DNA of 64,000 nt from a virus (IMGVR_UViG_3300047476_001812:15925-79924), one strand, 5' to 3'; counted from the first letter of the stretch, positions 245-64,000 are shown. Made by a program: numbers and translations. The notes: a model not told the origin generated them from the sequence alone.

Positions 245-333
245 TCTCACCGCCCCCAAAGCGTTAGCTTCCTTAATACCTTTGCCCTGTGCTATCTTTA
301 GATTAATGTAACAATTAGTCTGAAGATATCTTT

Positions 334-564
334 ATGGGATATAACTCAGGTCGTGGTGGTAAAAGAAATGGTGCTGGTAGACCTGCTACTGGTGTTGGGA
401 AAGTAATGAGAATAGCTACTAACTTATCCCGTGAGCAGTTAGAAGCTGCTCTTAATTTACTTGATGAGTATGAGGAGATATCTGAAAAGAGTTCTCCTAC
501 ATCCCCAAGGTTTGAACGGTTGAGAGAAATGTTGAATAAATATAAGGCGATTAAAAATGGATAA
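334..564 (+). CDS. small basic DNA-binding protein (RGGKRxGAGRP motif)
   Basis: N-terminal GRGGKRNGAGRP, common in small phage/plasmid DNA-binding proteins. Confidence 0.55.
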   Translation: MGYNSGRGGKRNGAGRPATGVGKVMRIATNLSREQLEAALNLLDEYEEISEKSSPTSPRFERLREMLNKYKAIKNG

Positions 565-904
565 CGATGTTAAAGGGCTTTATAAATTGTGTAGTGAAAT
601 TCTTTTAAAAGAAGGATTTTTCTTCTCACACTGCTACTGGAATCTTGATGGAAATAAACACCCTGTTGCTAAATCTGCTGATTGTGATTGCCCGGGAATC
701 CAAGTTTACCTTCCTGAAGAAAATGGGAATATTGGTATTCAGTCAGTTGTTGAAACAGATTATTTTTCCACTGATGCTATCACCATAGAGAATGAATCTC
801 AACTTAGGGCTGTGTTATCAGCGTTGATTTTGTTAATAAAGAATTGGCATGAGCGTTTAATTAGATTAGAAGAAATTTACAAAGACCAATTAATGTCTGA
901 ATAG
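557..904 (+). CDS. hypothetical protein
   Basis: 115-aa ORF overlapping the previous stop; followed by a stem-loop at ~914-942. Confidence 0.6.
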   Translation: MDNDVKGLYKLCSEILLKEGFFFSHCYWNLDGNKHPVAKSADCDCPGIQVYLPEENGNIGIQSVVETDYFSTDAITIENESQLRAVLSALILLIKNWHERLIRLEEIYKDQLMSE

Positions 905-991
905 TATTTATAGTAGCCTATGGTGTTTAATTCATAGGCTATTGCCTTATTTGTAGTGAAGATTAATAGCAAAATAAACAGGTTAACAGTT

Positions 992-2341: not shown

Positions 2342-2369
2342 TGTAATTTCTCGCCTGTTTGCAGCAAAA

Positions 2370-2413
2370 TTTCCTGAGCAGCATCATAGATGCTTTTGTA
2401 ATTGCTCAGGAAA
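2370..2413. terminator. bidirectional intrinsic terminator-like hairpin between convergent genes
   Basis: TTTCCTGAGCA...TGCTCAGGAAA inverted repeat. Confidence 0.7.
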
Positions 2414-2428
2414 GGACTTAAGAGAGGG

Positions 2429-2989: not shown

Positions 2990-3043
2990 TTCCCTAACTC
3001 CTTTATTGAGATTTTCACCTTTTTTTTCACAAACATTCAGGCG

Positions 3044-3187
3044 TTAGCCTTGTTCTATTGCTTTCATTAGTCCTGAAATATTGGGATTTTCACCCCATAA
3101 ACAGCCAAACTCTAGGGAGAGCTTTTCGAGTTCGGCTTTGTAATCCGGGGAGACAGAGAGCATAACGCTCTCTGACTTTCTAGACAT
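3044..3187 (-). CDS. 47-aa ribbon-helix-helix-like protein resembling the N-terminus of cyanobacterial WYL regulators
   Basis: Manual translation MSRKSESVMLSVSPDYKAELEKLSLEFGCLWGENPNISGLMKAIEQG; start overlaps the stop of 3187..3492. Confidence 0.65.
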   Translation of the reverse strand: MSRKSESVMLSVSPDYKAELEKLSLEFGCLWGENPNISGLMKAIEQG

Positions 3188-3950: not shown

Positions 3951-4058
3951 TTTCTCAACTACTCCTAATTTATTTAGTACCGATTCAAACCATTTTCTCG
4001 ACATCAAGAAAATGGTTATCTCCAAAACTACTAAGGCGTTAGCCGTTGTTTCCTAAGA

Positions 4059-4858: not shown

Positions 4859-4883
4859 TCCGTTTACCTCTAAAACTATATCA

Positions 4884-5225
4884 CTACCAGTTGGGCGTTA
4901 GCCCATTAACACTCACCTCAAACAGACTATTCCCTATTTGAAAGAACAAGGGAACACCTTTAACATCTACATTATCACCTAAACAAAACAGCAATGTCTG
5001 TAGAGTTTTAATCTCATACTTTCTATCACCTATTGCAAACTCGCAATAATATTGTGGAATATGTTTTGTACACAACTTAAAGGAAGCTGTGTACTCAGGA
5101 TGAAAGAATAAGTATTCAGGAGCTTGATGTGTAGCTATAAACTTATCTAAGTCAATGAGGTCATTCACCGTTTGTTGATATGAATTACCTTTGATTGTGC
5201 AGTCAATTACCAGTTTAGTTTTCAT
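4884..5225 (-). CDS. hypothetical protein
   Basis: 113-aa ORF; hairpin motif at 5271-5292. Confidence 0.65.
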   Translation of the reverse strand: MKTKLVIDCTIKGNSYQQTVNDLIDLDKFIATHQAPEYLFFHPEYTASFKLCTKHIPQYYCEFAIGDRKYEIKTLQTLLFCLGDNVDVKGVPLFFQIGNSLFEVSVNGLTPNW

Positions 5226-5300
5226 GGTTGATACAATATTTACCCTGAGTCATAATTACCTTTAGTTACTTCACCACCACTAAGGCGTTAGCCTTTTTGG

Positions 5301-7657: not shown

Positions 7658-7742
7658 TCGTTTATTTTGCTAGTTAAAAGTCCTGTTATAATTTAATTAT
7701 AACAGGACTTATTTTGTTCATCACAGTTAGTAAAGCGTTAGC

Positions 7743-8402
7743 TTAGAACTCATCATCTTTAGCGTCTTTGCTTCCCATTAAGATTACTTTGTTGGCATTA
7801 ATCTTGATACCATTTCTGGGTTCACCAGTGGTCTTGTCTGCCCAAGTTTCAAAGACTAAAGTGCCTTCAATCCCAAGGTTCTCGCCTTTACGGCAATACC
7901 TTTCTATGGCTTCACCCTGCTTATTCCAAGCAGTAATGTTATAGAAATACCCCTTCCTTCTTTCACTAATTAAAAGCGAAGTCTGAATAAAAGATTTGCC
8001 ACTTTCATAGATTCTCTTTTCAGGCATTTTCATCATCTTACCTGCAAGATAAATGGTATTGTAATTGACTTCTGCTTTGACTGGACAGACTGAGTGAGCC
8101 AGGATGTAGGGCTGTTCAATAACTTGTTTAGTTTCTTTATCTTTTTGCTCAGTAAACAATTGACCTGTAACAAGCATTTTCATTCCTGGCTTAAATAAAC
8201 TTAACCTGTCGGAGGTAATGCCAGAAAAGGTTTTGTCGTAGGAGTTATTAAATCCTTTGACGGATATTAAATGCTCTACAGGATTACCGTCTTTGTCAGC
8301 TTGAAGATAACTACACTGGGCAATGGAAAATGGTTGTTGCCCAGGAATGTCAGCAAAGGTTTCTACAAAGTTAACTGTGAGCGTAATGTTGATAATGTTC
8401 AT
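7743..8402 (-). CDS. ssb: single-stranded DNA-binding protein, tandem OB folds
   Basis: C-terminal NTIYLAG...YNITAWNKQGEAIERYCRKG...IEGTL...W and acidic tail DDEF; ATG 8402 lies downstream of hairpin motif 8447-8468. Confidence 0.8.
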   Translation of the reverse strand: MNIINITLTVNFVETFADIPGQQPFSIAQCSYLQADKDGNPVEHLISVKGFNNSYDKTFSGITSDRLSLFKPGMKMLVTGQLFTEQKDKETKQVIEQPYILAHSVCPVKAEVNYNTIYLAGKMMKMPEKRIYESGKSFIQTSLLISERRKGYFYNITAWNKQGEAIERYCRKGENLGIEGTLVFETWADKTTGEPRNGIKINANKVILMGSKDAKDDEF

Positions 8403-8516
8403 GGATTTAATTGGTAAGTGAGTAAAGAGGAAATGCAATAATTTCCTCACAAACATTTAGGCGTTAGCCTGTTGAAATTGTTTTTCAATTTCTTGAATAA
8501 TTGAACTATCAGGAGT

Positions 8517-9029: not shown

Positions 9030-9041
9030 CTATCCTACTCC

Positions 9042-9758: not shown

Positions 9759-9841
9759 GATATAATCTCCTACGATTACCAAACATCAAGAACCCCTCCT
9801 AGGAGATTCCTGAGAGGGGCTTTACTTTTACTTCATAACTA

Positions 9842-10153
9842 TTAATGCGTTAGCATTGCATTCTCTTTGTCTTCTAAGCTTTGAACTTTCCAAGACCGTT
9901 GTTCTAGAAAGCCCCGTGGTTCTTTAATAAACTCTTCCCTATCTTTAGTTATTTCAGCAGCTAATGGAATTAGGTGTTGATAATGTTCAAGAGTTGCATA
10001 CCTATTGTCATGAATCCTGGTAGTTAAATTCTGATGAAAAAAGTGAATTGTTAAAACAACATTTTTGTCCATCAATGAAAATTCTATTACAACATTTTCA
10101 TCTTCACCATGTTTTTTAAGTGTAAGCTGAGTGTTCTCTTTTCTTATTAACAT
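9842..10153 (-). CDS. hypothetical protein
   Basis: 103-aa ORF; hairpin motif at 10172-10193. Confidence 0.65.
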   Translation of the reverse strand: MLIRKENTQLTLKKHGEDENVVIEFSLMDKNVVLTIHFFHQNLTTRIHDNRYATLEHYQHLIPLAAEITKDREEFIKEPRGFLEQRSWKVQSLEDKENAMLTH

Positions 10154-10204
10154 TGTTACTTTTAAGATGCCTCACCACTAAAGGGGCGTTAGCCCCATGT
10201 ATTC

Positions 10205-16302: not shown

Positions 16303-18729
16303 CTACTTCACAACGTAAGCTTCGTTGTAACTTGGATGTCCTACGTTATTAAATCTTGTGTGAAGATGAACCGTAATTTCATCTCCTAATTTAATAGGTG
16401 GCGTGTCCTTAACTGGGACTACACCAATGCTATAGCCATTGGACTTAGCAATGAAGTAATGCTTGCCGTCATTACCAATGCCTGACTCAATCTTCATGAC
16501 AATAGCCTCACCTTTGAAGACTATTTCACGAAAATCTGAATATAGCCGTCCTACTATATTCAGTTTGTCAATTTTGAGAGTCTTAAGTTGTTCACATATC
16601 TGTTCTATACCTAATAGAAAACAGATATTAGTTGAGATGCCTACCCTGTCCTCATGCTCCTTTGCTTGAGGATTGGGAATCCCCGTTTTGTTGTTCCGGT
16701 GTTTGACATCCCAAAAGGCAGCCACAGCCATCATCCTCTGTGTAGGGGGTAAATGATTAAGTATTCCCTCATAGTATCTGCAGATATCTTTTTGAGAAGA
16801 TAACCTACGCTCTTTAATAATTCTGGGAACTCTCTTACCTGGATTATCTTCTTCCCACTTGCGCTGCTCTAATCCAGCAGCATACATGGCAGATGAGTAT
16901 TCGGAAGACACGACTTCTGCCCTCTCAATCCATTTCTTACTAGGATTGAGATGTGAGAAAAGAATGTTAAAAGGTCTGAGATTGGTAGCCTTAAGTTCTG
17001 GGTAAACCCAAAACTTATTTATTTCAGCTACAAGCAGTCCTACGGTATCATTAGGACGTGATGACATCTGGGATGACATATAGCAGTCGTCATTTTTGAC
17101 CTGCTTCAACCAATCAACTCTTTCAGACTTGAGAGCATTACCGATATCATCTAGCAACTTCCTGTTAGGTGGTGTAGCACCTTTGAGGGAGTCTACTGCC
17201 GCTTGCAGCTGCGGCACTAACTGAAATACAAAGTCCTCACGTTTACAAGCCCAGGATTTGGCTATGTAGTATGTGATAAGACCAGTCAAGTTTTCCATTG
17301 ACTTAACCAGGATTTGCCCTAGAGTCCCTTCAATGGGAATCTTCTTAGGTTTTAACCCTGCTTGGTCTAAGTCAGGTTCACCGAAGTTCTTGACTGCCTG
17401 AGCTACGTTAGGTAGAGTTGATGCAGGTAGCCACATAAGGAAATCCCCATCTGTGTCACGCCCCAGTTTCATTAAGGTATTGCAGTTACCTACAATAATC
17501 CCCTCCATCTGCTCCCATTTAGGCAAGACTTTATTTGTCCATACCTTAATATCATATTTCCATCTACAAGGATAGGGGAATACGATTACCTCTTCACCGT
17601 CAGGAAGTCCTGGGATATAACAGCAGTCATCTGGCAACTCCTCGTCTGGCATTACCATAGAGGAGTTAAATTTCATCCCACCAGATGTAGCTATCTCGCG
17701 CCACCGTCGGGATAGCATTCCCATAGTTGCCTTGATAACCCAAGGGTGGGTAGACAACTGACCGTGTACGTCAGACTTTAAAATCTGACTTAACCGAGAT
17801 TCACTAACCTCACTAAACTCCTCGCTTTCATCCCCTTTCCGCAGGAGATACGCTAACAATTTCTGAGGATTGTTGACTAAGATATTTAACTCCTGTGCTC
17901 TCATTTGCGCTACGGGAACTATATCTTTCTGTACACAATCCCAAGGAAGGAACTGTACTACTGAGTATGAAAGATTGGACTTACGGAAGTCCCACCCCAT
18001 TGCATACCGTTCAATAATCTCGGTATCAGTCTCTTCGACCTCAATAAGTCTGGACTTTCTAGACGGAGATTTAAACACCACACCAAAAGCCAATTTAGGA
18101 AGTGTATACTCCCCAGGTTTAACTTTATTGCCTTTGAAACAGGACGTAGGTAAAACAAGGTCATACTTACCTTTCTTAAACCCCACTGCAATTGTACCCT
18201 TTGCACACCAATCAGGGTACATATTGAAAGCCCTAAACTGGAATGGATTGAATATGGAATCCACAAACTCCATAGCAAACTTCTCAGAGCATTTCCCGTG
18301 GCAATCCCCAGTCCTATATTTCTTGGACTTGGCATCACCGTCATTAACAACTAAGAGTTTGATGGCAATATCCTTAATCAACTTACATTCAGTAGTCAGG
18401 TTAGAACCGTAGTTGGCAGCATTCATATTGCTACCAAAGAATCGAGTAAAGCAATTAAGTTCTGAGGTAGAATAGATTGCTTTACCTTCTTTCCTAGAGC
18501 CTGAACCACCAACTAATACATAGTCTTCAAAGCCTTTGTCAAGAACTTCAGAGATGTATTCTAAGTCAGGATTTTCATCAGCTAATAAACTACCCACATC
18601 ACCGATAGCAAACTTAACGTCAGGGAATAGATGCCCCAACATCGTATTGTGATATGTGCTTTGGCAATGCTCTGGTAGCCACTGTTGACTAACTAGGTCG
18701 TATTGCCTTAGAATAAGCTTAGATGGCAT
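16303..18729 (-). CDS. single-subunit two-barrel RNA polymerase, YonO / cellular RdRP (QDE-1)-like
   Basis: Ordered motifs GDCHGKCS, PFQFR...AKGT, LVLPTSCFKG, VIVFPYPC, catalytic GRDTDGDF, LTGLIT, QAAVDSLKG parallel the cellular RdRP motifs DGxGxIS, FQIR..KG, RNP, DxDGD, AVDxxKxG. Confidence 0.85.
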   Translation of the reverse strand: MPSKLILRQYDLVSQQWLPEHCQSTYHNTMLGHLFPDVKFAIGDVGSLLADENPDLEYISEVLDKGFEDYVLVGGSGSRKEGKAIYSTSELNCFTRFFGSNMNAANYGSNLTTECKLIKDIAIKLLVVNDGDAKSKKYRTGDCHGKCSEKFAMEFVDSIFNPFQFRAFNMYPDWCAKGTIAVGFKKGKYDLVLPTSCFKGNKVKPGEYTLPKLAFGVVFKSPSRKSRLIEVEETDTEIIERYAMGWDFRKSNLSYSVVQFLPWDCVQKDIVPVAQMRAQELNILVNNPQKLLAYLLRKGDESEEFSEVSESRLSQILKSDVHGQLSTHPWVIKATMGMLSRRWREIATSGGMKFNSSMVMPDEELPDDCCYIPGLPDGEEVIVFPYPCRWKYDIKVWTNKVLPKWEQMEGIIVGNCNTLMKLGRDTDGDFLMWLPASTLPNVAQAVKNFGEPDLDQAGLKPKKIPIEGTLGQILVKSMENLTGLITYYIAKSWACKREDFVFQLVPQLQAAVDSLKGATPPNRKLLDDIGNALKSERVDWLKQVKNDDCYMSSQMSSRPNDTVGLLVAEINKFWVYPELKATNLRPFNILFSHLNPSKKWIERAEVVSSEYSSAMYAAGLEQRKWEEDNPGKRVPRIIKERRLSSQKDICRYYEGILNHLPPTQRMMAVAAFWDVKHRNNKTGIPNPQAKEHEDRVGISTNICFLLGIEQICEQLKTLKIDKLNIVGRLYSDFREIVFKGEAIVMKIESGIGNDGKHYFIAKSNGYSIGVVPVKDTPPIKLGDEITVHLHTRFNNVGHPSYNEAYVVK

Positions 18730-18874: not shown

Positions 18875-18913
18875 AGTTCAATCCTATTTAGGCGTTAGCC
18901 TATTGATTCTGCA

Positions 18914-19096: not shown

Positions 19097-19131
19097 AACT
19101 TAACTCAAATTAACTCAAAACTGATTAGGCG

Positions 19132-19305
19132 TTAGCCTTGTTCAGTTTGAGGGCGCAAGGTGCATTGAAATTTCAATGCAAAAGCCCTTGCAGCCTTATA
19201 ATTTTTACATTCTGCTACCCTGCCATCAGGGTAGACAATATGCCATTCTGTCGCATTTAAGATAACATCCGGAGGAATGTTATCTTGTGGACTATAATAA
19301 ATCAT
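19132..19305 (-). CDS. 57-aa hypothetical protein
   Basis: Manual translation MIYYSPQDNIPPDVILNATEWHIVYPDGRVAECKNYKAARAFALKFQCTLRPQTEQG; GGGAG RBS; stop codon lies in the hairpin loop. Confidence 0.55.
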   Translation of the reverse strand: MIYYSPQDNIPPDVILNATEWHIVYPDGRVAECKNYKAARAFALKFQCTLRPQTEQG

Positions 19306-20448: not shown

Positions 20449-20754
20449 CTTCTTTTGCTAAATACCCTAAGTTTATTTTTCTCAATCATAATTACTTCAC
20501 AAATTACTTCACTATTAATGGGGCAATCGCCCCTATACTTTTGATGGTTTAACTACCGAATCCAAGCAACGCATTTACTGGAAAATCTATTTTCTTTTTT
20601 ATATTGTTGTTATTAGCTTGTGTGTCTAATCTAATTGCACTAGGGGCAACTAAATATCTATTATCAAGTTGTTGTTTTTTCATAACTCACCTGTTTATTT
20701 TGCCGAATATATTATACCATAGAGCAAGCAAAATAAACAGTGGTTGGTTAAATA

Positions 20755-21744
20755 ATGGAACTAAATAAATCTACGGAACTGAGCAACAGCTTGGGAATAG
20801 CTATTGTTAATAGGAATACAGACTTAGCTAAATCAGTTATAACGGAACTGTCAGATTTGGAAGAAACTCATTTAGCTAAGATAACTTCTAGGGTTAGAGA
20901 GAATATATCTAATGAAGAATGGTCTTGGTTTCAATCACTTCTTAATGATGGGAACGAGAGTAAACCTGTAGCTCCGTTGGCTGATGAAGATAAGGAATTA
21001 AAACAAAAATTAGAAACAAGAATTATAGAGAACACAAAAAGGTTTTTTATAGACACAGGCAGGGATTTATATATTCTCAAGCAGAGAAAACTTTATCGTG
21101 AACAATACAATAGTTGGCAGTCTTATTGTCAACTAAGTTTAGGCATTAATCCTACTACCGCAAGTAGAGCTATTAAGGCATATCAAGATTGTGAAAGTAT
21201 TCGCATTTACTTTAATGATGATACCTTGCTTCCTAAAACAGATTATGTTCTTAGATTATTAGGACAAATAAAAGATGTAGAGTTAAGAGCTAATGTGTGG
21301 CGTAAAGCTTTAGAAGATTGTGGTAATTCACCCACTACCTCAGACATTAGAAGGGTATATGCTGAGATAATTAACCCTGAAGTTAAACCACCTAAGCCTA
21401 ATAACTTAGAATTTAAAGTTGGTGATTTTGTATCTATAAAAGAATCCTGCATTAAGTGGGGTAAAGTAATTGAGATTACATCAGGATTAAGATACAAAAT
21501 TAAGTCAGGAGATATCACTTCAACATACCAGACTTATCAAGTAACTGAATTAGAAATACCTCTGTTTATTGCTGAGGCAGTAGAACAACTTTATCAATCT
21601 CATTCACCTAAATTAAATACAAATACTCTACTGAGTGACAATCACCCTCATACAAAATCTATTGCCACTACATTTTATGGGTATAACGAATTTGCTGATT
21701 GGCAAATATCTTTGTTAGGGAGTCTAAGAAGCTTATGTCAATAG
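20755..21744 (+). CDS. DUF3102-like DNA-binding protein with C-terminal KOW-like motif
   Basis: FIDTGRDLYILKQRKLYREQYNSWQSYC...ASRAIKA; FKVGDFVSI. Confidence 0.6.
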   Translation: MELNKSTELSNSLGIAIVNRNTDLAKSVITELSDLEETHLAKITSRVRENISNEEWSWFQSLLNDGNESKPVAPLADEDKELKQKLETRIIENTKRFFIDTGRDLYILKQRKLYREQYNSWQSYCQLSLGINPTTASRAIKAYQDCESIRIYFNDDTLLPKTDYVLRLLGQIKDVELRANVWRKALEDCGNSPTTSDIRRVYAEIINPEVKPPKPNNLEFKVGDFVSIKESCIKWGKVIEITSGLRYKIKSGDITSTYQTYQVTELEIPLFIAEAVEQLYQSHSPKLNTNTLLSDNHPHTKSIATTFYGYNEFADWQISLLGSLRSLCQ

Positions 21745-22361
21745 AACTCTTCAGGAAGTATCAACAAACAAAGTCTATTGCTATTAGAAATAAATTGGTA
21801 ATGCTCAATGAAGGATTAGCTTATAAAGCTGCACATACAGCTAAGTTATACTGCAATGAAAGTTTTGATGACTTATCACAAGAAGCGTTTATAGGATTGA
21901 TTAGAGCGGTGGAAGACTATGACCCCTATAAAGGAACTATGTTTTCTTCCTACGCAGTCCCTAGAATATCAGGAAAGATATTGCAATATCTTAGAGATAG
22001 GTCTAAGTTAATTAGGCTTAGTCAGTCAATGCAAAAGTTAATAGCAGACATTAAAAGGATAAGCAAACAATCAATTACTGTAGAGGAAATATGTAGACAA
22101 TTAAATATTACTCAGGAAGAATATCAACTAGCTATTGGTGCTTATGCTGCATCTACTCATCTTCATTCTATTGATGATGATAGTGATGATAGAAAACCAC
22201 TAGAGTTACCATCACATGATAATCAAATAGAGGAAAGTAAAGTATTCAAAGTTGATTACAGCAATGCTACTAATGAGGAACTGAAATCTCTTACTAGTGG
22301 TGATTTAAATGTTAGAAGTATTTGGTTAATGGCAAGTAATTGGATTAAAGAAGAAGGATAA
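21735..22361 (+). CDS. phage RNA polymerase sigma factor, group 3 (SigF/SigB-like), apparently without region 4
   Basis: IRNKLVMLNEGL, DDLSQEAFIGLIRAVEDYDPYKGTMFSSYAVPRISGKILQYLRD (region 2), ITVEEICRQLNI (region 3). Confidence 0.88.
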   Translation: MSIELFRKYQQTKSIAIRNKLVMLNEGLAYKAAHTAKLYCNESFDDLSQEAFIGLIRAVEDYDPYKGTMFSSYAVPRISGKILQYLRDRSKLIRLSQSMQKLIADIKRISKQSITVEEICRQLNITQEEYQLAIGAYAASTHLHSIDDDSDDRKPLELPSHDNQIEESKVFKVDYSNATNEELKSLTSGDLNVRSIWLMASNWIKEEG

Positions 22362-28414: not shown

Positions 28415-28496
28415 AATTTCTAATTCCTTGATTACATCACCATCATTAAGGCGTTAGCCTTACAAATATAATACTTTATAAAACTAAAACTAAACT

Positions 28497-29679: not shown

Positions 29680-29745
29680 TTTAACCTTTTAACTACATCA
29701 CTGCTCCTGGGGTGTTAACCCCTTTATTTATGATACTACTAACCA

Positions 29746-34645: not shown

Positions 34646-34720
34646 TTTCTTTTTCTCCGATTAGTTAATTTCCACCAAAAGTAATTAGGCGTTAGCCTTG
34701 TACTTGCTAACGCCAACCAA

Positions 34721-36510: not shown

Positions 36511-36560
36511 ATACTTAACACTTCACTACTTATAAGGCGTTAGCCCTGTACTTTGTATGC

Positions 36561-39794: not shown

Positions 39795-39943
39795 AACCAA
39801 ATCCTCAATACGTTAACTACAACAAAACTAAAGGGGCGTAGCCCCCATAAAAAACCAACATTAGACAAAGCTAACATCAAAACCTATCAGGCGTTAGCCT
39901 TGTCCATGCGAAGGACAAACGGGGGAATTTAACCCCCAGGAAG

Positions 39944-43016: not shown

Positions 43017-43105
43017 AAATCACAAATTACAAACATCACCACTTCTAAGGCGTTAGCCTTTGTAATAGGAAAACTACTGCAAGCAAAACAAATACAGGAT
43101 TTAAA

Positions 43106-46130: not shown

Positions 46131-46596
46131 TAACTTTCCCGGTAGAAGAAATTACTCTAACAGTTCAACTGAAGAACTAATTCAGCAATTTGGACCACGT
46201 GCTGCGGAAATTCTAAACGAGTACGCTTGTCAGCTTGAAGATAAGATGGAAGCACTGACTCAAGCCTATCAAGAGTCAATGGCTTATAACGTCCGCTCTT
46301 TCGAGACTATTCAGGCGTTAGCCCCACACATTCAACGCTATCAAGCGATGGAAAACCTGATGACTAACCCTGATAGTTTAGCTGCTTACACAGTAGATTT
46401 CTTTACTTACGTTCAACCATTACCAGAACGTCCCAACGCAGCACCACTAGTTAGACCTGACTTCCCAGCGGTTCTTAGCAGTCCTCAACCTGGAGTTCCT
46501 GACTTATCTCAAATCCACCCTTCAGAGCGATGGAAAGTAGCTGATGTTATGGAACGTCAAGGTATGTGGGAAGGTAAGGTCTTGATTCAGATATAG
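45676..46596 (+). CDS. capsid scaffolding protein (probable)
   Basis: Q/P-rich N-terminus, coiled-coil core, position between portal and capsid. Confidence 0.6.
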   Translation: MTNTAINFPSQGSAAMQPEYQPQQSPGQVVQFPQQSQPTQPPYSHQESYPSTESINRANNPDSWKDNLINNLLSRLSTPLGFPQQGQQSRMLPGTHNPNNPYSVVNQVTEARQQAYPQTSQYQQANPVVSGNSYSQHSQKLSPNVNPGQRTDNFPGRRNYSNSSTEELIQQFGPRAAEILNEYACQLEDKMEALTQAYQESMAYNVRSFETIQALAPHIQRYQAMENLMTNPDSLAAYTVDFFTYVQPLPERPNAAPLVRPDFPAVLSSPQPGVPDLSQIHPSERWKVADVMERQGMWEGKVLIQI

Positions 46597-48420: not shown

Positions 48421-51400
48421 ATGGCTTTTATTGATGCAGATTTTCCCATTCTTTTAGGACAAGAACTGTATCGCCCTGATGCTAAATACATTATGAAATA
48501 CATTACTCGACCACGGGTAAAACATGATTTCATGAAGCAGCCGGGTGAATAGTCGCCCCGTAGAGTTGTGAAACTCTAATGAAAATTCCGTGAACTGCTG
48601 GAAACCTCTCACTCTTTTTTATCTGTCAAAAGAGAAGGCTTAAAACACTACAACGCAACTGGTAACAGTAATCGTGATAGTTTGAAAAGTTTTAAGTATC
48701 GGGCAATCAGCATCCAAGGGACTCCGGAAGGAGTTCAAGGTTCAACGACTAGGGTACGGAGTCTAGAACAGACGGTAAAACCCCAAGAGCGCGGAACTAC
48801 TGAACCTTGAAAACTAAATACTAAGCAATTAAGTGGAAGCTAAAAGTTTTCTGACTGTATATCTAGCGAGTTTTCTTTGCAAAACAATTGAAGGGTTACA
48901 ACCGTACATCCAGTCAAGACCTTTGATGCCATGAAAAGAAAGCCTGTAAATGCTTTTGTTAGGACGGACTGAACCGGTGGTTATACCATTTCTGTGTAGA
49001 CAATCAGCAACACTTTCCAGTAATTCTTTATTCCCTGAAAGCGTACTGCTGGTGTCATTCTTGGAAATAGTGCCGTCACCATCCCACATCCCCCTAAGCA
49101 GATGACATTCTAATTCAGAATCTATTTTTGGTAGAGAGACAATATTGATTTTAGGTGTTGACAATCCTAAATTTAAAAGGTCTTGGCAGAGAACAGTGGA
49201 GTTTAGATTTAAGTTAACGACATCATGCACTTGACAGCTGTTTTCTTGGGGTTTACTGATTAGCAATTCACCCTCAAAATCCATAGCTTCTGCTATTTCT
49301 CGAAGTATGTAAGAATCAGATTCAGTTAAGCTTATTCTTGCTCTGTGCAACTCTTTGGTAATGTGTCCATCTGTAATCATCAAACCAAGAGCATAGGCTT
49401 TAACCTCTGAATCTATGTTTTGAAAAAACCTTTCATTGAAAAAGATTTTACGGTTGCTGACATTAGGAACACCTTTTACCCCAACGGTTATTCCATGTTT
49501 TTCCGCAAAACTTTTAACACCCAGCTTTCTGCGATAATAACCGGCGTTGTTTTTACCAATTCCAAATTGTTCCCCTATTTGTAAATCGGTAAATTCATTT
49601 GTAAGGTTGTCAAAATCGGCAAAAGAAAGTTCTGTGATTTCCATGCTTAGTATTTGTGATTATTCAGTAGAAGATATAGTCTGTAAGTGCCAATGACAAA
49701 GGCATCACCGCTATCCAGGCGTTAGCCGTAATCTAATTATAAACCTAATTGGATTATATAGCAACCTATAGGACAACATTCAGTTAGACAGATACGCATT
49801 CTGGCAAACCCCTGAAGCTGGCTTCAATAAAGCTGCACGTCAACGGGGTGCTACTCAGGTAATTGGTGTAAACAACTCTCGGAATATCACCAAAGATAAA
49901 GTGATATTAACTCTCGAAGAGTATACTGGACCAGCCGACCCAACCAATCCTGAAAGTCCATCTACTTTCCAGATTCCTATCAAAGACATCATGACTGCCC
50001 AGCGCCAACTATGGCAATACGGGCAACGTGCGTTTCACGATAGTATTGGTAGTTCTAACCTTCTCCAGGACTTCCGTAAATGGGAAGACCGTCTATATAC
50101 CAACGAGTTATTGAAGACAACTTTTATTTACAATCCACGGGGTATTGCCGATGGTGCAACGGTCAACCTAACTCAAGCTGACTTTGGATTTAACGGACAG
50201 CCACCTCAATTTAATGTCAATGACTTAGAGACCGTAGTAGCAGATTTGTTTACCCGTAACTGCCCACAGTTTGAAGATGGTAACTATGTTTGCGCTTGTT
50301 CTGCTATCTTTATCAAACACTTGAGAAGTGATAGCAAGTTCCTAGAGATTACCCGATACTACGCTAGTAACCCCAGCTTAGTTCCGGCATCTGCCATGAC
50401 TAACGGTGCTGCTGGTAGTTTTGCTCCTCCCCAAATAAACTTCAATGCCGCTCCTTGGCAATCTGGTTTAACTGGTGGACAAGCAAACGATGTAATGGGT
50501 CAAGTAATGATGCCTAAAAATAATGTAGTTAGACTCACAAGAATTTCTTGCAAATCTAACTAAGCCTAGTGGGCATCTAAAACGGGATGAATTGCTGGAA
50601 ACCCGCCAAGCCAAGGGCAATCAGCAGCCAAGCCAAGAGAAATCCGTAGAAGTATCTTGGAAGGTTCAACGACTAATGGGTGAACAGGATAAGTAATAAG
50701 CCCAACACGAGCGTCCCGGCATCAGAACCTTGACAACCAAATACTTGCTTCATTTAACTTCCTGGGAATTGCTATTGTGCAGTTGGAGTAAAGCCACTCA
50801 ATTACGGGTTTAGCTTTATCAACGCCGTAACACCCAAAAGTGTAGAGAGGTTTTCCGTTATTGACCGACTCTTTTACTTTTGACGGATAGCCTAGACGAG
50901 ACTCCACAAGTTCTGCAAAACCATAGATTAAATCTTTAGTCGCTGACTGCAAGATAAAACGGTTTTTATCAAAACTTATATGCCCGTCTCCATCAAAAAA
51001 TCCTCTCAAGTAATGTCGGGTTAATTCAGTAGACAAGTTACGAACAAGTAAACGCTCTGATTTTCTCCCAAAACCCAAAGCCACCATTTGTTCAATTAAA
51101 TCTCTGCTGTATATTTCAAGTCTTTCAGTTGGAGATTTGCCTTCCCTGTGGATTTGTTTTATGTAACGGTCACATTCTGAAGCACCAGCAACAGACTTAC
51201 AGATTGTGTGCAAAACAATTGAGTCTGGGTGTTTTAGTTCAATCGTAAACTTTCTATGTTTTATGGTGTTACATATAGAACCATCTGCCGTCAAAAGTCC
51301 TAATGCGTAAGCCTTAATCTCGGAGTCAATACTTTGAAAATAAGTTCTATCAATCTGAAGCTTATCAAAGTATTCACCTTCACCTTGATTAAGAACCCTG

Positions 51401-56320: not shown

Positions 56321-56401
56321 TTCCAATCTAAACCACCATCACTAAGACGTTAGCCCTTCCTAGGAATTGTATCTACTAAGAACTTAAATAAAATAATATT
56401 T

Positions 56402-58611: not shown

Positions 58612-58707
58612 TGTTTATTTCCTTTCGGTAATCAATTACATCACCATTAATGGGGCAATTGCCCCTATTTCTTTGAAGAATTATATCACAAACCAATAAC
58701 TAAAATC

Positions 58708-60886: not shown

Positions 60887-61061
60887 GTCAAACCCCTTAA
60901 GTTCTTAACTTAACTTCACCACTCTTGCGGCGTTAGCCGTGCTATTTACTGGGAAATCATGCTGTTCTATTTTCCCCGAATTCCCATGAGCATAACTTCA
61001 CTACTCCTGCGGCGTTAGCCGTTGTAGGAATTATACCACCAAACTAATTATTTAAAGTGGT

Positions 61062-63617
61062 ATGAAAATTGAAGGTGTTGTAGAGATTAGAAAAGTTGAT
61101 AGTGTTACTGGAGAAATAGTAGAGGTAATCACACAAAAGAATTTAATACCTGCTAATAGCTTATTGGGGGTGTTAGGTCAGTGGGCGGTAAGGGGTTATT
61201 TTGGGGATAAACGTATTTCTATTTCTACCTCTACAACAACACCAACAATACTAAACTCTACGTTAACTAATATTATTGCAACTGGTTATATTCCTTCAAA
61301 TGCTACTTCACCTACTTGGAATCCTGGTATTGACCCCCCTTATGGGCAAATACATAATAGAATAGATTTTACTGGGACAAGTAGAGTGTTTAATTCTGTT
61401 GGTTTGACAGCATTAGGTAGTGGTAATAACCAAGGTAATTTATCTACTACAACTTACGCTTACTTGAAATTAGATACCCCTTGTACTCAAGGTGCAACAG
61501 AATTTTTAGATATTTTTTATAGAATACAATTCACAAATAGCGGTGGTGGGCAAGGTTTTCTGGGTGATTCAGCCCGTTATCAATTTGGTAAAGCCGTCAC
61601 AATTCCATGGAATGGAATTTCCATTTTTAGAATTGGAATGTTGTTTGTTAGCTTTACAAATATCAACAACTTAGATTCCTACAAAAATCTTTATGTTGGC
61701 AACTCTCCAAATCTTGCAAATTCAGAGGGTTCTAATCCAGGTTGGTTAAGTAGTGGTACATTAGTCTCTTCTCATTACAAATGGAGATATAATTTATCAT
61801 GGGATAGAGATAGATATACTGGATATATTTGCAACTTAATGCCTCAAGGGGTTGGCGAACCCTTGAGTGGAGACAATGCTTTCTTTATATCTAAAATAAA
61901 TTATGCTAAAGAGCCGTTCCAAACAGGATTTTGGCATTCATCTACAGCACCTACTCCTTTCTTTGACCCTCTTTTTGCTGGTAGCTCTAATGGTATTCCT
62001 ACACTTGCAGGAACTTGGACTGGTAAGTTGCCTGAATTATTTAAACTTACTATCACTACCACAGGTGCAGTAGGGGTAGCGACTTATAAATTATCTATTA
62101 GAAAACATCTTGGTTTTAATGGAAGTAACTATACAGATTTAACTATAGGAAGCCCCTACAGGAATCCCAATATAGCAGCGCATCCCAGGCATCACGGATG
62201 GAGAAAACAAGACAATGATTTATTGCGCTGGTCAAACACTCAAATAGTCCAATACGATGATACTGGAGTAACTTTACTTGATATCTTTGACGGAACTTTT
62301 ACCACATGGGATAGCTTATCAACTCCGGTTCTAAGTGCAACTCAAATAAGACAAGTAGCTGTAGACCCTGCAAATAATCTAATTCATGTTGCCTGTAGGA
62401 ATACAGGGCTTTACATAATTAATGTCAACACAAACTCAATTACCTTACAGTTAAACAGCCCTTGTTACGGAGTTGATGTAGGAAGAAATGGTAGAACTTT
62501 TGCACTTGTTGATGGTGGTCTTTATAGCTCTAATAATTGGGCAGTTACTGAAACTTTTACGTTTACTGGAATCAGCGATGGAAATTGGTCAAGAGTCTAT
62601 TTTTTAAAAGCAGACCCCGAAAATACCAATGACAGAATAGCTATTATTGCAGAAAATGCAAGTGGCACTAATAGAAGAATGGTTTGGTGGCAAGTGGGTA
62701 CACCAGCAGCAGTGTTAGGATATGAAGGAAGTGAAATAAAAAGATATCCTGCAAGTTTAGATGTTAGTAATACAGGGAGTTTTTGGGCTGCACAAGCATC
62801 TAGATTTACCTATGGAACTACTACAAGAACTGCATTGACTTTTACTATCAACGGTGGTACTGTTGCTGTGAGTATTCCATCAGAAACCTTTACTCATACA
62901 GTATGGGGAAGTGATGCTTACTATAAGGTAGATTTTTATAATGGTAATTTAATTACTAATGATAGATTGCTTAGTTCTAATAACACATCAGTGGTTGTAT
63001 ACACAGCATTAGGAACTACACCAACACTTTTACATTTAGATAGCGGAATAACTCTCTACGCATCTATGAGGCAATTGTTTACTGATAATACCTATTGCTG
63101 GACTGACTATGGTTGGAATGGAAGTAGTTGGGTCGCTGGTAATCCTAACTCTAAGACTACTCATACTGGTGCAGAAACATTGATTAATGGGATTACAGTT
63201 GCATTTGCTAATGGTACTAATGCACCGCATTTTACATCTACCAACTATTTTACTCAGGGAATATGTTACGGATTCTGGAAAGATAATGCTAGTTCGCTAG
63301 ATTACTCCTCAGCTTGGTATTCAATCCCGGTAATTTTTAACCAACCCGTAAGTCTTACAATACCTGCTACTGCACCTTATACATTAACTTTAACTGATGC
63401 AACTACTTACCCTTCATTTATTAGGATAGAAACCGATACCCCACAATTGCATAAGTTTACAATCAACGGAACACCAGTAACTCAGATTTATGTAAATGGG
63501 GAAGCCCCAGCCCCAGGAGAAATTAGTATGCAATCTTCTGGGAATGGGGTGTTAACATTTAATGCGGCTGATGCAGGTAAAACGTTAGGTGGTACTTATA
63601 CGTGGTTGAGATTTTAA
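61062..63617 (+). CDS. tail/baseplate or receptor-binding protein with a beta-propeller-like region
   Basis: N-terminal G.V.I...D..TGEIV....KNLI typical of tail proteins; T/G/S/N-rich; IRQVAVDP...GLYIIN. Confidence 0.7.
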   Translation: MKIEGVVEIRKVDSVTGEIVEVITQKNLIPANSLLGVLGQWAVRGYFGDKRISISTSTTTPTILNSTLTNIIATGYIPSNATSPTWNPGIDPPYGQIHNRIDFTGTSRVFNSVGLTALGSGNNQGNLSTTTYAYLKLDTPCTQGATEFLDIFYRIQFTNSGGGQGFLGDSARYQFGKAVTIPWNGISIFRIGMLFVSFTNINNLDSYKNLYVGNSPNLANSEGSNPGWLSSGTLVSSHYKWRYNLSWDRDRYTGYICNLMPQGVGEPLSGDNAFFISKINYAKEPFQTGFWHSSTAPTPFFDPLFAGSSNGIPTLAGTWTGKLPELFKLTITTTGAVGVATYKLSIRKHLGFNGSNYTDLTIGSPYRNPNIAAHPRHHGWRKQDNDLLRWSNTQIVQYDDTGVTLLDIFDGTFTTWDSLSTPVLSATQIRQVAVDPANNLIHVACRNTGLYIINVNTNSITLQLNSPCYGVDVGRNGRTFALVDGGLYSSNNWAVTETFTFTGISDGNWSRVYFLKADPENTNDRIAIIAENASGTNRRMVWWQVGTPAAVLGYEGSEIKRYPASLDVSNTGSFWAAQASRFTYGTTTRTALTFTINGGTVAVSIPSETFTHTVWGSDAYYKVDFYNGNLITNDRLLSSNNTSVVVYTALGTTPTLLHLDSGITLYASMRQLFTDNTYCWTDYGWNGSSWVAGNPNSKTTHTGAETLINGITVAFANGTNAPHFTSTNYFTQGICYGFWKDNASSLDYSSAWYSIPVIFNQPVSLTIPATAPYTLTLTDATTYPSFIRIETDTPQLHKFTINGTPVTQIYVNGEAPAPGEISMQSSGNGVLTFNAADAGKTLGGTYTWLRF

Positions 63618-63934
63618 TTGATTTTAACTGAACCACCAGCATTGATTGATTTCCCGATGTGACCACTTGCTTCTAAGCTACCGCCGCAATTAACTGAGCC
63701 TTCAACGTTATTACATTGGACAGAGCCGCCAGCCTCCAAATTGCCTTGAATGTTTTTGCATTCAACACTTGCATCAGTTCTAAGTGAGGCTAAATCACCA
63801 TCCCATTGAATCTTTATATTACCAGAAAGTCCACTAATTACTGTATTGCCATTGACGGTAATAACGCCGTTGACAATACTAACATTGCCGCCGGAGACTT
63901 CAAAGGTTTGTCCGTTCACTTTTATTTTGTTCAC
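63614..63934 (-). CDS. small beta-helix-like protein (antisense cassette)
   Basis: Repeated G(N/S)V/GGSV units; GGAG RBS; hairpin motif at 63961-63982. Confidence 0.7.
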   Translation of the reverse strand: MNKIKVNGQTFEVSGGNVSIVNGVITVNGNTVISGLSGNIKIQWDGDLASLRTDASVECKNIQGNLEAGGSVQCNNVEGSVNCGGSLEASGHIGKSINAGGSVKIN

Positions 63935-64000
63935 TTGAATACTCCACTAATTTATTTACATCATCACTACTAGTGCGTTAGCCCTTACTAGGAATATTAT

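Follow-up and report, generated by a model that had tools for sequence, protein, structure and literature searches.

Putative template-strand hairpin promoters in a probable cyanophage that encodes a YonO-like RNA polymerase

A promoter in the form of a small hairpin is known from phage N4, whose early promoters are read by the virion RNA polymerase (PMC4496689) and contain the hairpin GCGGAGC (PMC13037366). This hairpin is covered by the definition of mini-hairpin DNA (PMC13037366, PMC4496689), that is, the extraordinarily stable sequences GCGNAGC or GCGNNAGC (Kimoto & Hirao 2026, PMC13037366). Among the two-barrel polymerases, YonO of the Bacillus prophage SPbeta is DNA-dependent and transcribes a defined set of SPbeta genes, its promoter having been left undetermined (PMC5467207); Thermus phage P23-45 encodes two two-barrel polymerases, which have AT-rich and GC-rich promoter motifs of their own (bioRxiv 10.1101/2022.12.01.518664); and, in Bacillus phage 0305phi8-36, sequences of 21 bp have been put forward as promoter candidates for the RdRP-like gp99 (PMC2147016).

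Here we describe an approximately 80-kb genome, probably that of a cyanophage, which combines a repeated hairpin motif, denoted class B, with a gene for a YonO-like polymerase. The best reading of the sequence evidence, to which we assign about an even chance, is that the copies are phage-specific hairpin promoters read by this polymerase; that they would serve leftward early or middle genes, namely those for replication proteins, many small genes and the polymerase gene itself, is a proposition that we hold with the same, evenly balanced confidence. The initial annotation presented the pairing of such a motif with a two-barrel polymerase as not known to be described, and we found no paper describing it.

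Distribution and pairing of the class B motif

A single contig, 79,924 bp long and overlapping by 191 bp at its ends, makes up the genome; its bases 15925-79924 form the window, the whole stretch of 64,000 nucleotides (Table 1). The RNA libraries found to contain this phage are all low-depth metatranscriptome contigs without ends. Searching the window with the strict pattern YCAH-N10-GCGTTAGC gave 22 matches, each on the + strand, the first at 247-268 and the last at 63961-63982, compared with none in 100 shuffles, and TCAC-N10-GCGTTAGC also matches 22 times (22/22 on the + strand; expected, 0). The core GCGTTAGC by itself occurs 26 times on the + strand and four times on the - strand, against 0.64 expected. 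With six further, weaker + copies recovered by a weight-matrix scan, the window total comes to about 28-29, and the 10-nt spacer is invariant across all strict copies. The whole genome contains 36 distinct + copies and four weak - copies, and GCGTTAGC is the + (template) strand reading in 35 of the 36. About 31 of these 36 copies, which are intergenic or overlap just a doubtful predicted start, precede a minus-strand start codon by 12-155 nt (mostly 18-63). The + strand, which bears the G..A loop, is the template for the minus-strand genes. The initial annotation, which had listed some 29 copies in one orientation with a constant spacer, most of them about 10-150 nt before minus-strand starts and with the GNNA loop on the template strand, is borne out on all these points. 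Isolated leftward genes among the rightward structural genes each have a class B copy of their own, and orientation tracks the gene rather than the replicon because a reversed copy precedes the rightward DnaB-like gene. Most phage copies are located between co-oriented genes without terminators.

In the sense of the genes, the consensus is (A)AGGC-TAAC-GCCT(T), 11 nt, TGAnG(nAA), and the conserved TGAnG/TGATG box 10-11 nt after the hairpin marks a candidate start region. The stem is paired in 87.2% of cells, compared with 75.1% in shuffles, and both sides are changed in 24 cells, compared with 5.9; the covariation score of 0.332 (0.109 in shuffles) was reached by none of 500 shuffles, and all slid registers scored lower. 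The co-variation of the stem claimed at the outset thus stands; it concerns three pairs beyond the GC core. The core itself, d(GC-GTTA-GC) on the template strand, is the GCGNNAGC mini-hairpin extended by two or three co-varying pairs. Nearest-neighbour folding, which does not model the mini-hairpin stability effect, puts both strands at -4 to -6 kcal/mol, with no advantage for the template.

The inclusion of AATC, AATT and GATT among the loop variants fared less well. The GGGGC-AATY-GCCCC hairpins are mostly near-palindromic and terminator-like, as exemplified by the one at 5983-5970, which directly follows the helicase stop and is followed by a T-run, and for the most part constitute a separate class; just two functional-looking variants, with loops lacking G..A (AATC at 20509 and AATT at 58641), have the class B downstream box at the correct spacing. 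The phage also contains a second class of hairpins, with a three-base loop (GTA).

Table 1. Class B copies and associated genes in the window (motif letters on the + strand; copies listed as - would fire leftward)
Feature	Position	Strand	Form or basis	Context
Class B copy	247..268	-	strict match; stem AAGC/GCTT	no minus-strand gene nearby
Weak reversed copy	938..959	+	AGGC-TATT-GCCT ... GTGA	would fire rightward into DnaB-like helicase gene 956-2341
Class B promoter candidate	3027..3048	-	strict match	37 nt 5' of gene 2429-2989 start
Class B promoter candidate	4022..4043	-	strict match	at doubtful TTG start, gene 3582-4025
Class B promoter candidate	4881..4902	-	strict match	22 nt 5' of gene 4451-4858
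Class B promoter candidate	5271..5292	-	top matrix score, 46 bits	45 nt 5' of gene 4884-5225
Class B promoter candidate	7721..7742	-	strict match	63 nt 5' of UvrD-like helicase gene 6026-7657
SSB, 130-residue N-terminal extension	7743..8456	-		
Class B promoter candidate	8447..8468	-	strict match	at predicted SSB gene start, 7743-8456
Class B promoter candidate	9833..9854	-	stem AATGC/GCATT	50 nt 5' of gene 9042-9782
Class B promoter candidate	10172..10193	-	stem GGGGC/GCCCC	18 nt 5' of gene 9842-10153
808-aa single-chain two-barrel RNA polymerase (QDE-1/RDR2/YonO kind), proposed reader	16303..18729	-	DxDGD, AF2, Foldseek	
Class B promoter candidate	18878..18899	-		148 nt 5' of polymerase gene; leader with two terminator-like hairpins
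Class B promoter candidate	19115..19136	-	strict match	18 nt 5' of small gene 18914-19096
Variant	20509..20530	-	GGGGC-AATC-GCCCC + class B downstream box; weight matrix	60 nt 5' of gene 20098-20448
220-aa SigF-like sigma factor, regions 2-3 only, rival reader	21699..22361	+	NCBIfam profile match	
Class B copy	24233..24254	-	strict match	within 3' end of + gene 22363-24324; no leftward gene
Class B promoter candidate	28437..28458	-	6-bp stem	22 nt 5' of gene 28088-28414
Variant	29698..29719	-	GGGGT-GTTA-ACCCC; weight matrix	18 nt 5' of gene 29068-29679
Class B promoter candidate	32527..32548	-		144 nt 5' of gene 31216-32382; class A element in between
Class B promoter candidate	34675..34696	-	strict match	29 nt 5' of gene 34361-34645
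Class B promoter candidate	36523..36544	-	strict match	12 nt 5' of gene 36289-36510
Class B promoter candidate	39877..39898	-	strict match	76 nt 5' of gene 39549-39800
Class B promoter candidate	43036..43057	-	strict match	19 nt 5' of small gene 42873-43016
Weak copy	46301..46322	-	TCGA replacing TCAC; weight matrix	no leftward gene
Class B promoter candidate	49705..49726	-	strict match	60 nt 5' of minus-strand gene 48829-49644
Weak copy	51291..51312	-	loop GTAA; weight matrix	within gene 50722-51621
Weak copy	56333..56354	-	GACGTTAGCC; weight matrix	+ strand intergenic gap; no leftward gene
Variant	58641..58662	-	GGGGC-AATT-GCCCC + class B downstream box; weight matrix	29 nt 5' of gene 58213-58611
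Class B promoter candidate	60916..60937	-	stem CGGC/GCCG	29 nt 5' of gene 60311-60886
Second class B copy	60998..61019	-	strict match	111 nt 5' of gene 60311-60886
Class B promoter candidate	63961..63982	-		26 nt 5' of gene 63614-63934; in 191-bp genome end overlap

The polymerase and its relatives

The only polymerase-like gene found in the genome encodes the 808-aa protein, and its early identification as a two-barrel polymerase is corroborated by several lines of evidence. The DxDGD motif occupies residues 425-429, with D425, D427, G428 and D429 invariant across 18 homologues down to 26% identity; one homologue carries Pfam PF05183. The AF2 model (pLDDT 84.7, pTM 0.80) retrieved with Foldseek RDR2 (E 6e-15) and QDE-1 (E 2e-13 with TM 0.50-0.56), as well as P74 gp62, P32 gp64, P23-45 gp96 and crAss-like gp66, so that, by its predicted structure, this protein is a two-barrel polymerase with a fold like that of QDE-1 and RDR2. 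A tblastn search of SPbeta and other GenBank phages with the polymerase produced no match at E 1e-5.

Relatives with 81-88% and 47% polymerase identity keep GCTAACGC, with 7-10 copies per 22 kb, always on the strand of the polymerase gene, and motif-first scans of 2.9 million viral contigs detected at least two matches only on five polymerase-encoding relative contigs. Distant relatives of the polymerase (25-29% identity), which reside in integrated elements of filamentous cyanobacteria, show the same hairpin-plus-box design with other loops (TATC, TACC, TAGC, TTC, TAC), in the arrangement GC-T(N)C-GC or GC-TANC-GC, 10 nt, TGATG(T)n, about 12 nt, ATG; the TG(A/G)TG box follows the hairpin by 10 nt and the ATG by 29-36 nt, and strong terminators often immediately precede the hairpin. 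On the template strand, related elements read GCGATAGC, GCGGTAGC, GCGCTAGC, GCGAAGC and GCGTAGC, and all loop variants fit GCGNAGC or GCGNNAGC. Beyond the two GC pairs, the stem is weak in several distant elements: only 51% of 88 pooled copies have a Watson-Crick first flanking pair.

In ten whole host genomes (5-8 Mb), nearly all strict matches fall on the polymerase contig, and 401 other cyanobacterial genomes have 0-2 scattered matches each. In the Anabaena element, the polymerase operon has no hairpin and a divergent gene array has 15 copies, an arrangement that fits a relay from the host polymerase to that of the element; the arrays of the Anabaena and Spirulina elements are oriented along their own genes. 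The motif is absent in a sister lineage (L011/L057, 37% identity) and in a clade of 1100-1370-aa homologues. The distant elements have just two genes in common with the phage, which encode the polymerase and a SLOG-like protein; neither the 1951-aa protein nor, within 10 kb, a sigma gene was found in these elements. The hairpin-plus-box design travels with this family of polymerases, in phages and in integrated elements that have neither the sigma gene nor the 1951-aa gene in common. The co-distribution is partly phylogenetic because the loci were found via the polymerase search and many Microcoleus loci are orthologous copies. The design recurs only beside relatives of the YonO/QDE-1-type polymerase and is therefore probably the long-sought promoter of that enzyme class.

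Alternative readers and functions

Orientation, position before genes and conservation in relatives support promoter-like behaviour of the motif and, together with the covariation of the stem, sustain part of the original hairpin-promoter proposal. The main rival reader is the host core polymerase with the sigma of the phage, because the motif also reads AAGGC-N15-GGTGA, similar to the SigF promoter TAGGC-N15-GGTAA (PMC2532724), and this sigma is SigF-like. Under this rather unlikely scenario, host core polymerase with the phage sigma, or host SigF, would use AAGGC as the -32 and (G/T)GTGA as the -12 element, with the palindrome either incidental or serving another factor as its operator. The Synechocystis SigF promoter has TAGGC at -32 and GGTAA at -12 (PMC2532724), positions from which we derived the 15-nt gap, and the gene-sense consensus AAGGC, TAACGCCTnAnTAGT (15 nt), nGTGA has four of five matches in each element at this exact spacing; the top NCBIfam match of the phage sigma is cyanobacterial SigF (E 1.4e-37, below the cut-off). 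The alternative of host core plus phage sigma, which the initial annotation had mentioned, is thus stronger than expected. Unlike in SigF promoters, however, the bases between the elements AAGGC and (G/T)GTGA are invariant and paired: the most invariant ones (loop TAAC, right arm GCC) would fall in the spacer, unread by sigma factors, and the two outer bases of the would-be -32 element co-vary with bases 3' of the loop. Furthermore, region 4, with which sigma factors read -35/-32 elements, could not be detected in the phage sigma. The sigma gene lies with tail genes in a rightward operon that is preceded by another motif, GCAAGCAAAA(T/C)AAA, as is the portal operon. The distant elements keep the hairpin and TGATG without TAGGC or a nearby sigma gene, and the composite motif is missing from the rest of the host genomes, where host SigF promoters must exist.

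Covariation is compatible with pairing in RNA as well as in DNA, so transcripts that start further upstream might carry the hairpin (GGC-UAAC-GCC) in their 5' leader, as a stem-loop that a phage regulator binds or a nuclease cuts. Read-through RNA would indeed include the hairpins at most phage copies, and a translational operator would also be compatible with the fixed spacing between hairpin and ATG in the distant elements. We nevertheless consider this improbable: the strong intrinsic terminators directly upstream of many distant-element copies demand a new start for the downstream gene, the stem is only 2-5 bp long and is followed by a second conserved box at a fixed distance, and the complements of the RNA-sense loops UNC and UANC match the DNA mini-hairpin rule exactly (PMC13037366), whereas no known class of stable RNA loops includes UNC or UANC themselves. 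Even less probable, in our view, is a role of the mini-hairpins as signals for single-strand initiation or priming, or as some other strand-specific mark of replication or recombination. Natural mini-hairpins do include primase sites (PMC13037366) and act as such signals at the phage G4 origin and RSF1010 ssiA, nearly all copies are on one genome strand, and three motif sites (276, 3047 and 4045) are the exact points at which contigs of relatives diverge. However, orientation follows the genes, both in the reversed copy and in the Anabaena and Spirulina arrays, and neither the constant 29-36 nt to start codons nor a copy before nearly every leftward gene would be expected of priming sites.

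Proposed mechanism and comparison with known systems

Returning to hairpin promoters read by the YonO-like polymerase, we propose the following scheme, in which the activity as a promoter, the reader, the extrusion of the hairpin and the position of the start are all inferred. Negative supercoiling would extrude a small cruciform, the stable template-strand hairpin would be recognised by the 808-aa polymerase, which would have no sigma to melt the DNA, and RNA synthesis would begin at or close to the TGAnG box, which lies downstream at a fixed distance, as with the unrelated virion polymerase of N4 at GCGGAGC hairpins. By analogy with N4, the phage SSB could help to hold the extruded hairpin (PMC4496689). 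Since the polymerase gene itself is preceded by the motif, a first source of enzyme is needed. In this same evenly balanced reading, class B is a member of a wider family, composed of a mini-hairpin (template GCGNAGC or GCGNTAGC), 10-11 nt and TGATG, that accompanies QDE-1/YonO-like single-chain polymerases in cyanophages and in integrated elements of filamentous cyanobacteria. Somewhat more tentatively, the whole YonO/QDE-1-like family of cyanophages and integrated elements may find its genes via template-strand Hirao-type mini-hairpins (GCGNAGC or GCGNTAGC) and a TGATG start box, the free loop base and the loop length varying between lineages. If true, hairpin promoters like those known from N4 would have arisen independently a second time, and a promoter rule would be available for this class of polymerases for the first time; how a two-barrel enzyme opens DNA without a sigma would then be explained as well.

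Compared with SPbeta, the phage similarly has a single-chain two-barrel polymerase with a DxDGD loop; the gene after that of the polymerase is HU-like in both SPbeta (yonO-yonN) and the cyanobacterial elements, whereas no HU gene was found in the phage genome. P23-45 and 0305phi8-36 resemble this phage in combining single-chain two-barrel polymerases with phage-specific motifs upstream of genes, and the 808-aa model structurally matches relatives of the P23-45 non-virion polymerase (P74 gp62, P32 gp64); the word 'hairpin' does not appear in the P23-45 text and the gp99 promoter motif is not called a hairpin, whereas class B pairing co-varies and fits the mini-hairpin rule. With respect to N4, the differences are that its enzyme is T7-like, a kind of reader not found in this phage, whose candidate reader has the unrelated QDE-1/YonO-type fold; that N4 has three promoters at one genome end, compared with about 36 copies genome-wide; and that the phage loop has four bases (GTTA), with the TGAnG box 11 nt after the hairpin. 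The likenesses are a phage-specific, small, GC-rich template-strand hairpin with a G..A loop closed by C:G and inverted repeats whose sequence is free as long as pairing is kept, as in the three co-varying pairs of class B; the N4 hairpin sits a fixed short distance upstream of the start, and the model of supercoil-driven extrusion is the same as that proposed here. Class B may thus work in an N4-like manner, yet outside the N4 system, because the only polymerase-like gene found is of the two-barrel type.

A plus-strand mini-hairpin upstream of leftward genes

The pattern YCAH-N10-GCGTTAGC, the class B motif considered here as a candidate promoter of minus-strand (leftward) genes, has 22 strict matches in the window, all on the plus strand, and none in 100 shuffles; the octamer GCGTTAGC occurs in the window 26 times on the plus strand and four times on the minus strand, against 0.64 expected. 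The single contig comprises 79,924 bp, of which the window covers bases 15925-79924; because the first and last 191 bases of the contig are identical save for one mismatch, it probably represents the complete genome. A weight matrix made from the 28 strict copies in the genome extends the conserved stretch beyond the motif initially described, to TT.C.TCAC.AC(T/C)A.T.AG-GCGTTAGC-C on the plus strand, and a genome-wide scan with this matrix yielded 36 distinct plus-strand copies and four weak minus-strand copies. The scan adds six plus-strand copies in the window, so that the total of 28 comes close to the 29 copies of the initial annotation, and the single orientation claimed there is borne out by the strict matches; however, most of the hairpins with AAT(C/T) loops that had been taken for variants belong to a separate, terminator-like class.

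Most of these GGGGC-AAT(C/T)-GCCCC hairpins are near-palindromes that are detected from both strands and look like short two-way terminators; one directly follows the stop codon of the helicase gene and is itself followed by a T-run. Two of them (20509 and 58641) may be true class B variants because the downstream box GTGA.GTAA lies at the right distance and leftward genes follow. The terminator reading fits the separate hairpins; for the GTTA copies it was rejected, their stems being 4-5 bp long, with no T-run after them in the gene sense. A host sigma-70 promoter reading was likewise rejected, consensus matches being no commoner than in shuffles. The GGGGC-AAT(C/T)-GCCCC hairpins are one base off the cyanobacterial HIP1 palindrome, and short palindromes are strongly avoided throughout the genome (in 79.7 kb, no GCGATCGC (HIP1), no CGATCG, five GATC and seven GGCC), which fits a phage of restriction-rich cyanobacteria.

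A simple prediction by codon usage gave 116 genes. Relative to these, about 31 of the 36 copies fall between genes or touch no more than a doubtful predicted start, with 12-155 nt (for the most part 18-63 nt) separating them from the minus-strand start codon downstream, the placement that had been proposed from the sequence at the outset. The rightward structural genes (terminase, portal, tail) are without the motif, each isolated leftward gene among them has its own copy, and a weak reversed copy precedes the rightward gene for a DnaB-like helicase; the orientation of the motif therefore tracks the gene and not the replicon. Where copies face rightward genes, the plus-strand hairpin is followed at several places by GCGTTAGCC-(3-5 nt)-TAGGAAT-(2-3 nt)-TAT(A/C), perhaps a promoter for rightward transcription that overlaps the hairpin. 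A search of sequencing runs for the phage gave two metatranscriptomes, a doubtful RNA run and a fourth run of unspecified type, all in the form of contigs at a depth of about 1-10; compared over positions 1-20000 of the window, these contigs showed neither strand nor the ends of reads, and so carry no information on start sites. Some related-phage contigs in public runs track the window up to a hairpin and then diverge, at 4045 into a continuation that resembles the sequence after another motif copy of this genome; breaks in module shuffling seem to fall at the motif.

Pairing in the stem was assessed in an ungapped alignment of the 36 copies with a 5-pair stem. In this alignment, 87.2% of the cells are paired (75.1% in shuffles), and 24 are changed on both sides (5.9 in shuffles), counts that are not all independent events because some copies are probably duplicates (60916 and 60998). 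The covariation score of 0.332, compared with 0.109, was reached by none of 500 shuffles, and all slid registers scored lower. The third pair occurs as GC, AU and UA, the fourth as AU, GC, CG and UA, and the fifth as AU, GC, UA and CG, in agreement with the co-varying stem seen initially; the sixth pair gave no covariation signal.

Coordinates and strands of the motif copies, hairpins and genes discussed in the text, with strand counts for arrays in distant loci
Feature	Position	Strand	Remark
Class B motif, first strict match in window	247-268	+	
Class B motif, last strict match in window	63961-63982	+	
Class B copies at isolated leftward genes (examples)	28437, 29698, 49705, 58641, 60916, 63961	+	
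Class B copies added by matrix (examples)	20509, 58641, 29698	+	AATC; AATT; GGGGT/ACCCC stem
Second motif class, range	19449-42584	-	14 copies
Second motif class, example copies	19531, 19449, 32510, 34331, 35477, 42584	-	
GGGGC-AAT(C/T)-GCCCC hairpins	5970-5983; 20520-20533; 32652 region; 52651 region; 58652 region		helicase stop codon before 5983-5970
GCAAGCAAAA(T/C)AAA	19583, 20724, 43079	+	
Hairpins followed by GCGTTAGCC-TAGGAAT-TAT(A/C)	56340-56375; 61005-61040; 63968-64000; genome 160-200	+	
Hairpins at which related contigs diverge	276, 3047, 4045		
808-aa polymerase gene	16303-18729	-	
Hairpins in polymerase leader	18875-18834; about 18790-18745	-	
1951-aa protein gene	10205-16060	-	
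220-aa sigma gene	21699-22361	+	
239-aa protein gene (SLOG-like, DUF4326)	34721-35440	-	
HU-like gene, Anabaena	L069:12616-13134		
HU-like gene, Spirulina	L060:12871-13530		
HU-like gene, SPbeta	L122, yonO-yonN		
GCTATCGC array, Spirulina locus L060			13 / 0 copies (one strand / other)
GCTATCGC array, Anabaena locus L069			15 / 0 copies
GCTACCGC array, Cylindrospermum locus L079			10 / 0 copies
GCTAGCGC array, Aerosakkonema locus L073			6 / 1 copies

The two-barrel polymerase and its relatives

The 808-aa protein proposed to read the motif has no match in Pfam or NCBIfam, and its sole PHROG match is one of unknown function. A large protein collection contains 54 homologues, one with the Pfam RdRP domain PF05183, and D425-x-D427-G428-D429 is invariant in an alignment of 18 homologues, down to 26% identity. 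Along its full length, an AlphaFold model (pLDDT 84.7, pTM 0.80) resembles RDR2 of maize and Arabidopsis and QDE-1 of Neurospora (E 1e-13 to 6e-15, TM 0.50-0.56); weaker matches are the Thermus-phage polymerases P74 gp62 and P32 gp64, P23-45 gp96, and gp66 of a crAss-like phage. All these came from the fold search, a PDB sequence search with the family profile having given no match. Phages in GenBank, SPbeta included, had no match to the protein at E 1e-5, and the polymerase region matched none of them in DNA or protein. This is the sole two-barrel polymerase gene found in the genome. The 1951-aa protein encoded directly downstream, rich in N, Q, P and G and confined to five phage relatives, was considered as a second (virion) polymerase and rejected, having no Pfam, PHROG or NCBIfam match, no DxDxD and a distribution limited to close phage relatives. 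The leader between a class B copy and the start of the polymerase gene contains two terminator-like hairpins, a 19-bp stem plus T-run that is kept in close relatives and AAAACCCCTTAGTAG...CTACTAGGGGGTTTTC; together they may act as an attenuator that limits expression of the polymerase itself.

In four IMG/VR contigs with a polymerase 81-88% identical and in one at 47%, GCTAACGC occurs 7-10 times per 22 kb, always on the strand of the polymerase gene, with the downstream box one base closer in the 47% relative. A scan of 2.9 million viral contigs that started from the motif found, among the matches listed, at least two strict matches only on these same five contigs, and always on the polymerase strand.

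A profile search for more distant relatives of the polymerase gave 48 metagenome loci and 65 genome loci, most of the latter in filamentous cyanobacteria (Microcoleus, Nostoc, Anabaena, Planktothrix, Lyngbya, Spirulina and others); cultured carriers of integrated versions include Anabaena sp. UHCC 0187, Spirulina sp. CS-785/01, Lyngbya sp. PCC 8106, Planktothrix PCC 9631 and many Microcoleus strains. Many loci contain strand-specific arrays of a similar octamer with the third loop base changed (Table), and those of Microcoleus, Phormidium and Floridaenema have instead the heptamer GCTTCGC, sometimes mixed with GCTACGC; GCTTCGC with the downstream box was found in 69 instances, compared with 11 for the next commonest heptamer. 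In the distant elements, TG(A/G)TG with a T-run comes 10 nt past the hairpin, and the first ATG stands 29-36 nt past it; the GTGA.G of the phage, read with a shift of one base, is this same box, as TGAnG, at 11 nt from the hairpin (10 nt in the 47% relative). Strong intrinsic terminators directly precede several copies in the Spirulina element, so the downstream gene needs a new transcription start. In two 22-kb loci, from Floridaenema (L075) and Phormidium (L083), one strand has 20 and 28 copies, respectively, of the hairpin core CCTGATGG.

Within host genomes, the motif is confined largely to the contig with the polymerase. Five host genomes (5-8.6 Mb) had 17 matches to the tetraloop pattern in four of them, always on the contig with the polymerase locus, and none in the fifth, and the reversed control pattern matched once over all five; in five further genomes, 11 of the 13 triloop-pattern matches were on the polymerase contig, with no control matches. 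Among 401 cyanobacterial genomes sampled, a cluster (five matches) was present in the Anabaena genome only, the others having 0-2 scattered matches each.

A tblastn comparison of 116 phage proteins with all loci showed that the distant elements share only two of them, the polymerase and a SLOG-like domain (GSRS...GDAPGVD...GKPRN...WDG.S.GT), which forms the first ~120 residues of a 239-aa protein with DUF4326 in its C-terminal part. This domain is 45-60% identical to ~125-aa proteins of the elements, far above the conservation of the polymerase, and is present in 29 of 45 motif-bearing loci versus 2 of 43 others. An HU-like gene lies 3' of the polymerase gene in the Anabaena and Spirulina loci and in SPbeta (Table), and no HU gene was found in the phage genome; HU prefers cruciform and bent DNA and could assist hairpin promoters. 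A FastTree phylogeny of 81 polymerases unites the phage clade, with loop TAAC, in a single branch (99% support); a Microcoleus clade has almost exclusively TTC, a third clade mixes TATC, TACC, TAGC and TTC, and no such motif was seen in a clade of 1100-1370-aa homologues. The loop labels require 23 changes on this tree, compared with 38 when shuffled, which indicates clustering and not co-evolution because relatives share labels anyway.

Template-strand form and possible readers

On the template strand, every variant takes the form GC-G(N)A-GC or GC-GNTA-GC (GCGTTAGC, GCGATAGC, GCGGTAGC, GCGCTAGC, GCGAAGC and GCGTAGC); the G..A loop is carried by the plus strand, the template of the leftward genes, as the first reading of the sequence had it. 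A second motif class in the phage, with TTTTTATGGnn-GCTACGC-nCC, about 14 nt, TGTAGTT and a small leftward gene, likewise gives the triloop form GCGTAGC on the template strand; the core GCTA(A)CGC is common to both classes, and spacing and box differ. To our knowledge, the RNA-sense loops UNC and UANC belong to no stable RNA loop class. The loop rule fits DNA and not the RNA sense, which is our best argument for inferring that it is the template DNA strand that functions. By nearest-neighbour energies neither strand is favoured, and several distant elements pair weakly outside the two GC pairs: among 88 pooled copies the next two pairs form in 51% and 40%, compared with 23% and 27% after shuffling. 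Extraordinarily stable "mini-hairpin DNA" has been defined as GCGNAGC or GCGNNAGC, with natural uses in the phage G4 origin, in RSF1010 ssiA and, as GCGGAGC, in the N4 early promoter (2026 review, PMC13037366).

It is rather improbable, in our judgement, that the motif is read instead by the host core enzyme with the 220-aa SigF-like sigma factor of the phage, be it entirely or in a mixed model with sigma at the -12 box and something else at the hairpin. The likeness is, nevertheless, too good to dismiss: the protein contains Sigma70 region 2 and has cyanobacterial SigF as its best NCBIfam match, and the gene-sense motif AAGGC-15 nt-(G/T)GTGA resembles the only characterised cyanobacterial SigF promoter, with TAGGC at -32 and GGTAA at -12 (PMC2532724), positions from which a gap of 15 nt is derived. 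However, such a reading assigns the invariant loop and the right arm to the spacer, covariation links the outer bases of the "-32 element" to bases past the loop, and region 4, without which a -32 element should not be read, was not detected in the protein. Moreover, the sigma gene, which like the 1951-aa gene is limited to the phage clade, sits in a rightward operon with tail genes; the distant elements, with no sigma-like gene detectable within 10 kb, retain the hairpin and TGATG without TAGGC. The operon with the sigma gene stands behind a third motif, GCAAGCAAAA(T/C)AAA, which precedes three rightward operons (the others being that of the gene at 19608 and the portal operon) at 15-25 nt from their start codons and may be a leader or promoter of rightward (late) genes.

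The copies are unlikely to act at the RNA level, as leader elements, given the terminator-motif-gene cassettes and the asymmetry of the loop; nor are they likely to be priming sites, because the link to gene direction is strict and the distance to start codons fixed. Thus, comparative evidence favours the hairpin promoter with a two-barrel reader suggested in the initial annotation, whereas the start site, the identity of the reader enzyme and hairpin extrusion are what we infer; the full polymerase-hairpin model would have about an even chance of being right.

Comparison with known promoter systems

YonO-like polymerases, which are sigma-less, are distantly related both to cellular RNA polymerases and to the RNAi polymerases of eukaryotes. 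The YonO promoter was left open in the 2017 YonO paper (PMC5467207), and start-site choice by these enzymes has been open since; the candidate rule is a mini-hairpin, a spacer of 10-11 nt and a TGATG box, of which dozens of natural variants exist. Upstream of yonK in SPbeta no GCGNAGC-type hairpin was seen, the published start (2225998 in the B. subtilis 168 genome) not having been placed on the phage record. Thermus phage P23-45 has mapped promoter motifs for its two-barrel polymerases (bioRxiv 10.1101/2022.12.01.518664), and a 2007 paper proposed promoter motifs for gp99 of Bacillus phage 0305phi8-36 (PMC2147016), in neither case called hairpins; literature searches on the motif strings, YonO promoters and later YonO work found nothing relevant. 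If the model is right, GCGNNAGC mini-hairpins have a natural role, and small orthogonal promoter-polymerase pairs would be at hand for cyanobacterial engineering; should the sigma factor prove to be the reader, this would be the first promoter for a phage-borne SigF-like sigma, which is still useful.

The closest parallel is the hairpin promoter of coliphage N4, in which extrusion needs a 5' G and a 3' A in the loop and a closing C:G pair, the stem sequence is free to vary if paired, gyrase and SSB are required, and a GC-rich heptamer is centred at -11 (PMC4496689). The proposed working is similar but the fold of the polymerase differs, so class B is not a member of the N4 system; conceivably, two unrelated polymerase folds have converged on the use of extruded DNA hairpins as promoters.
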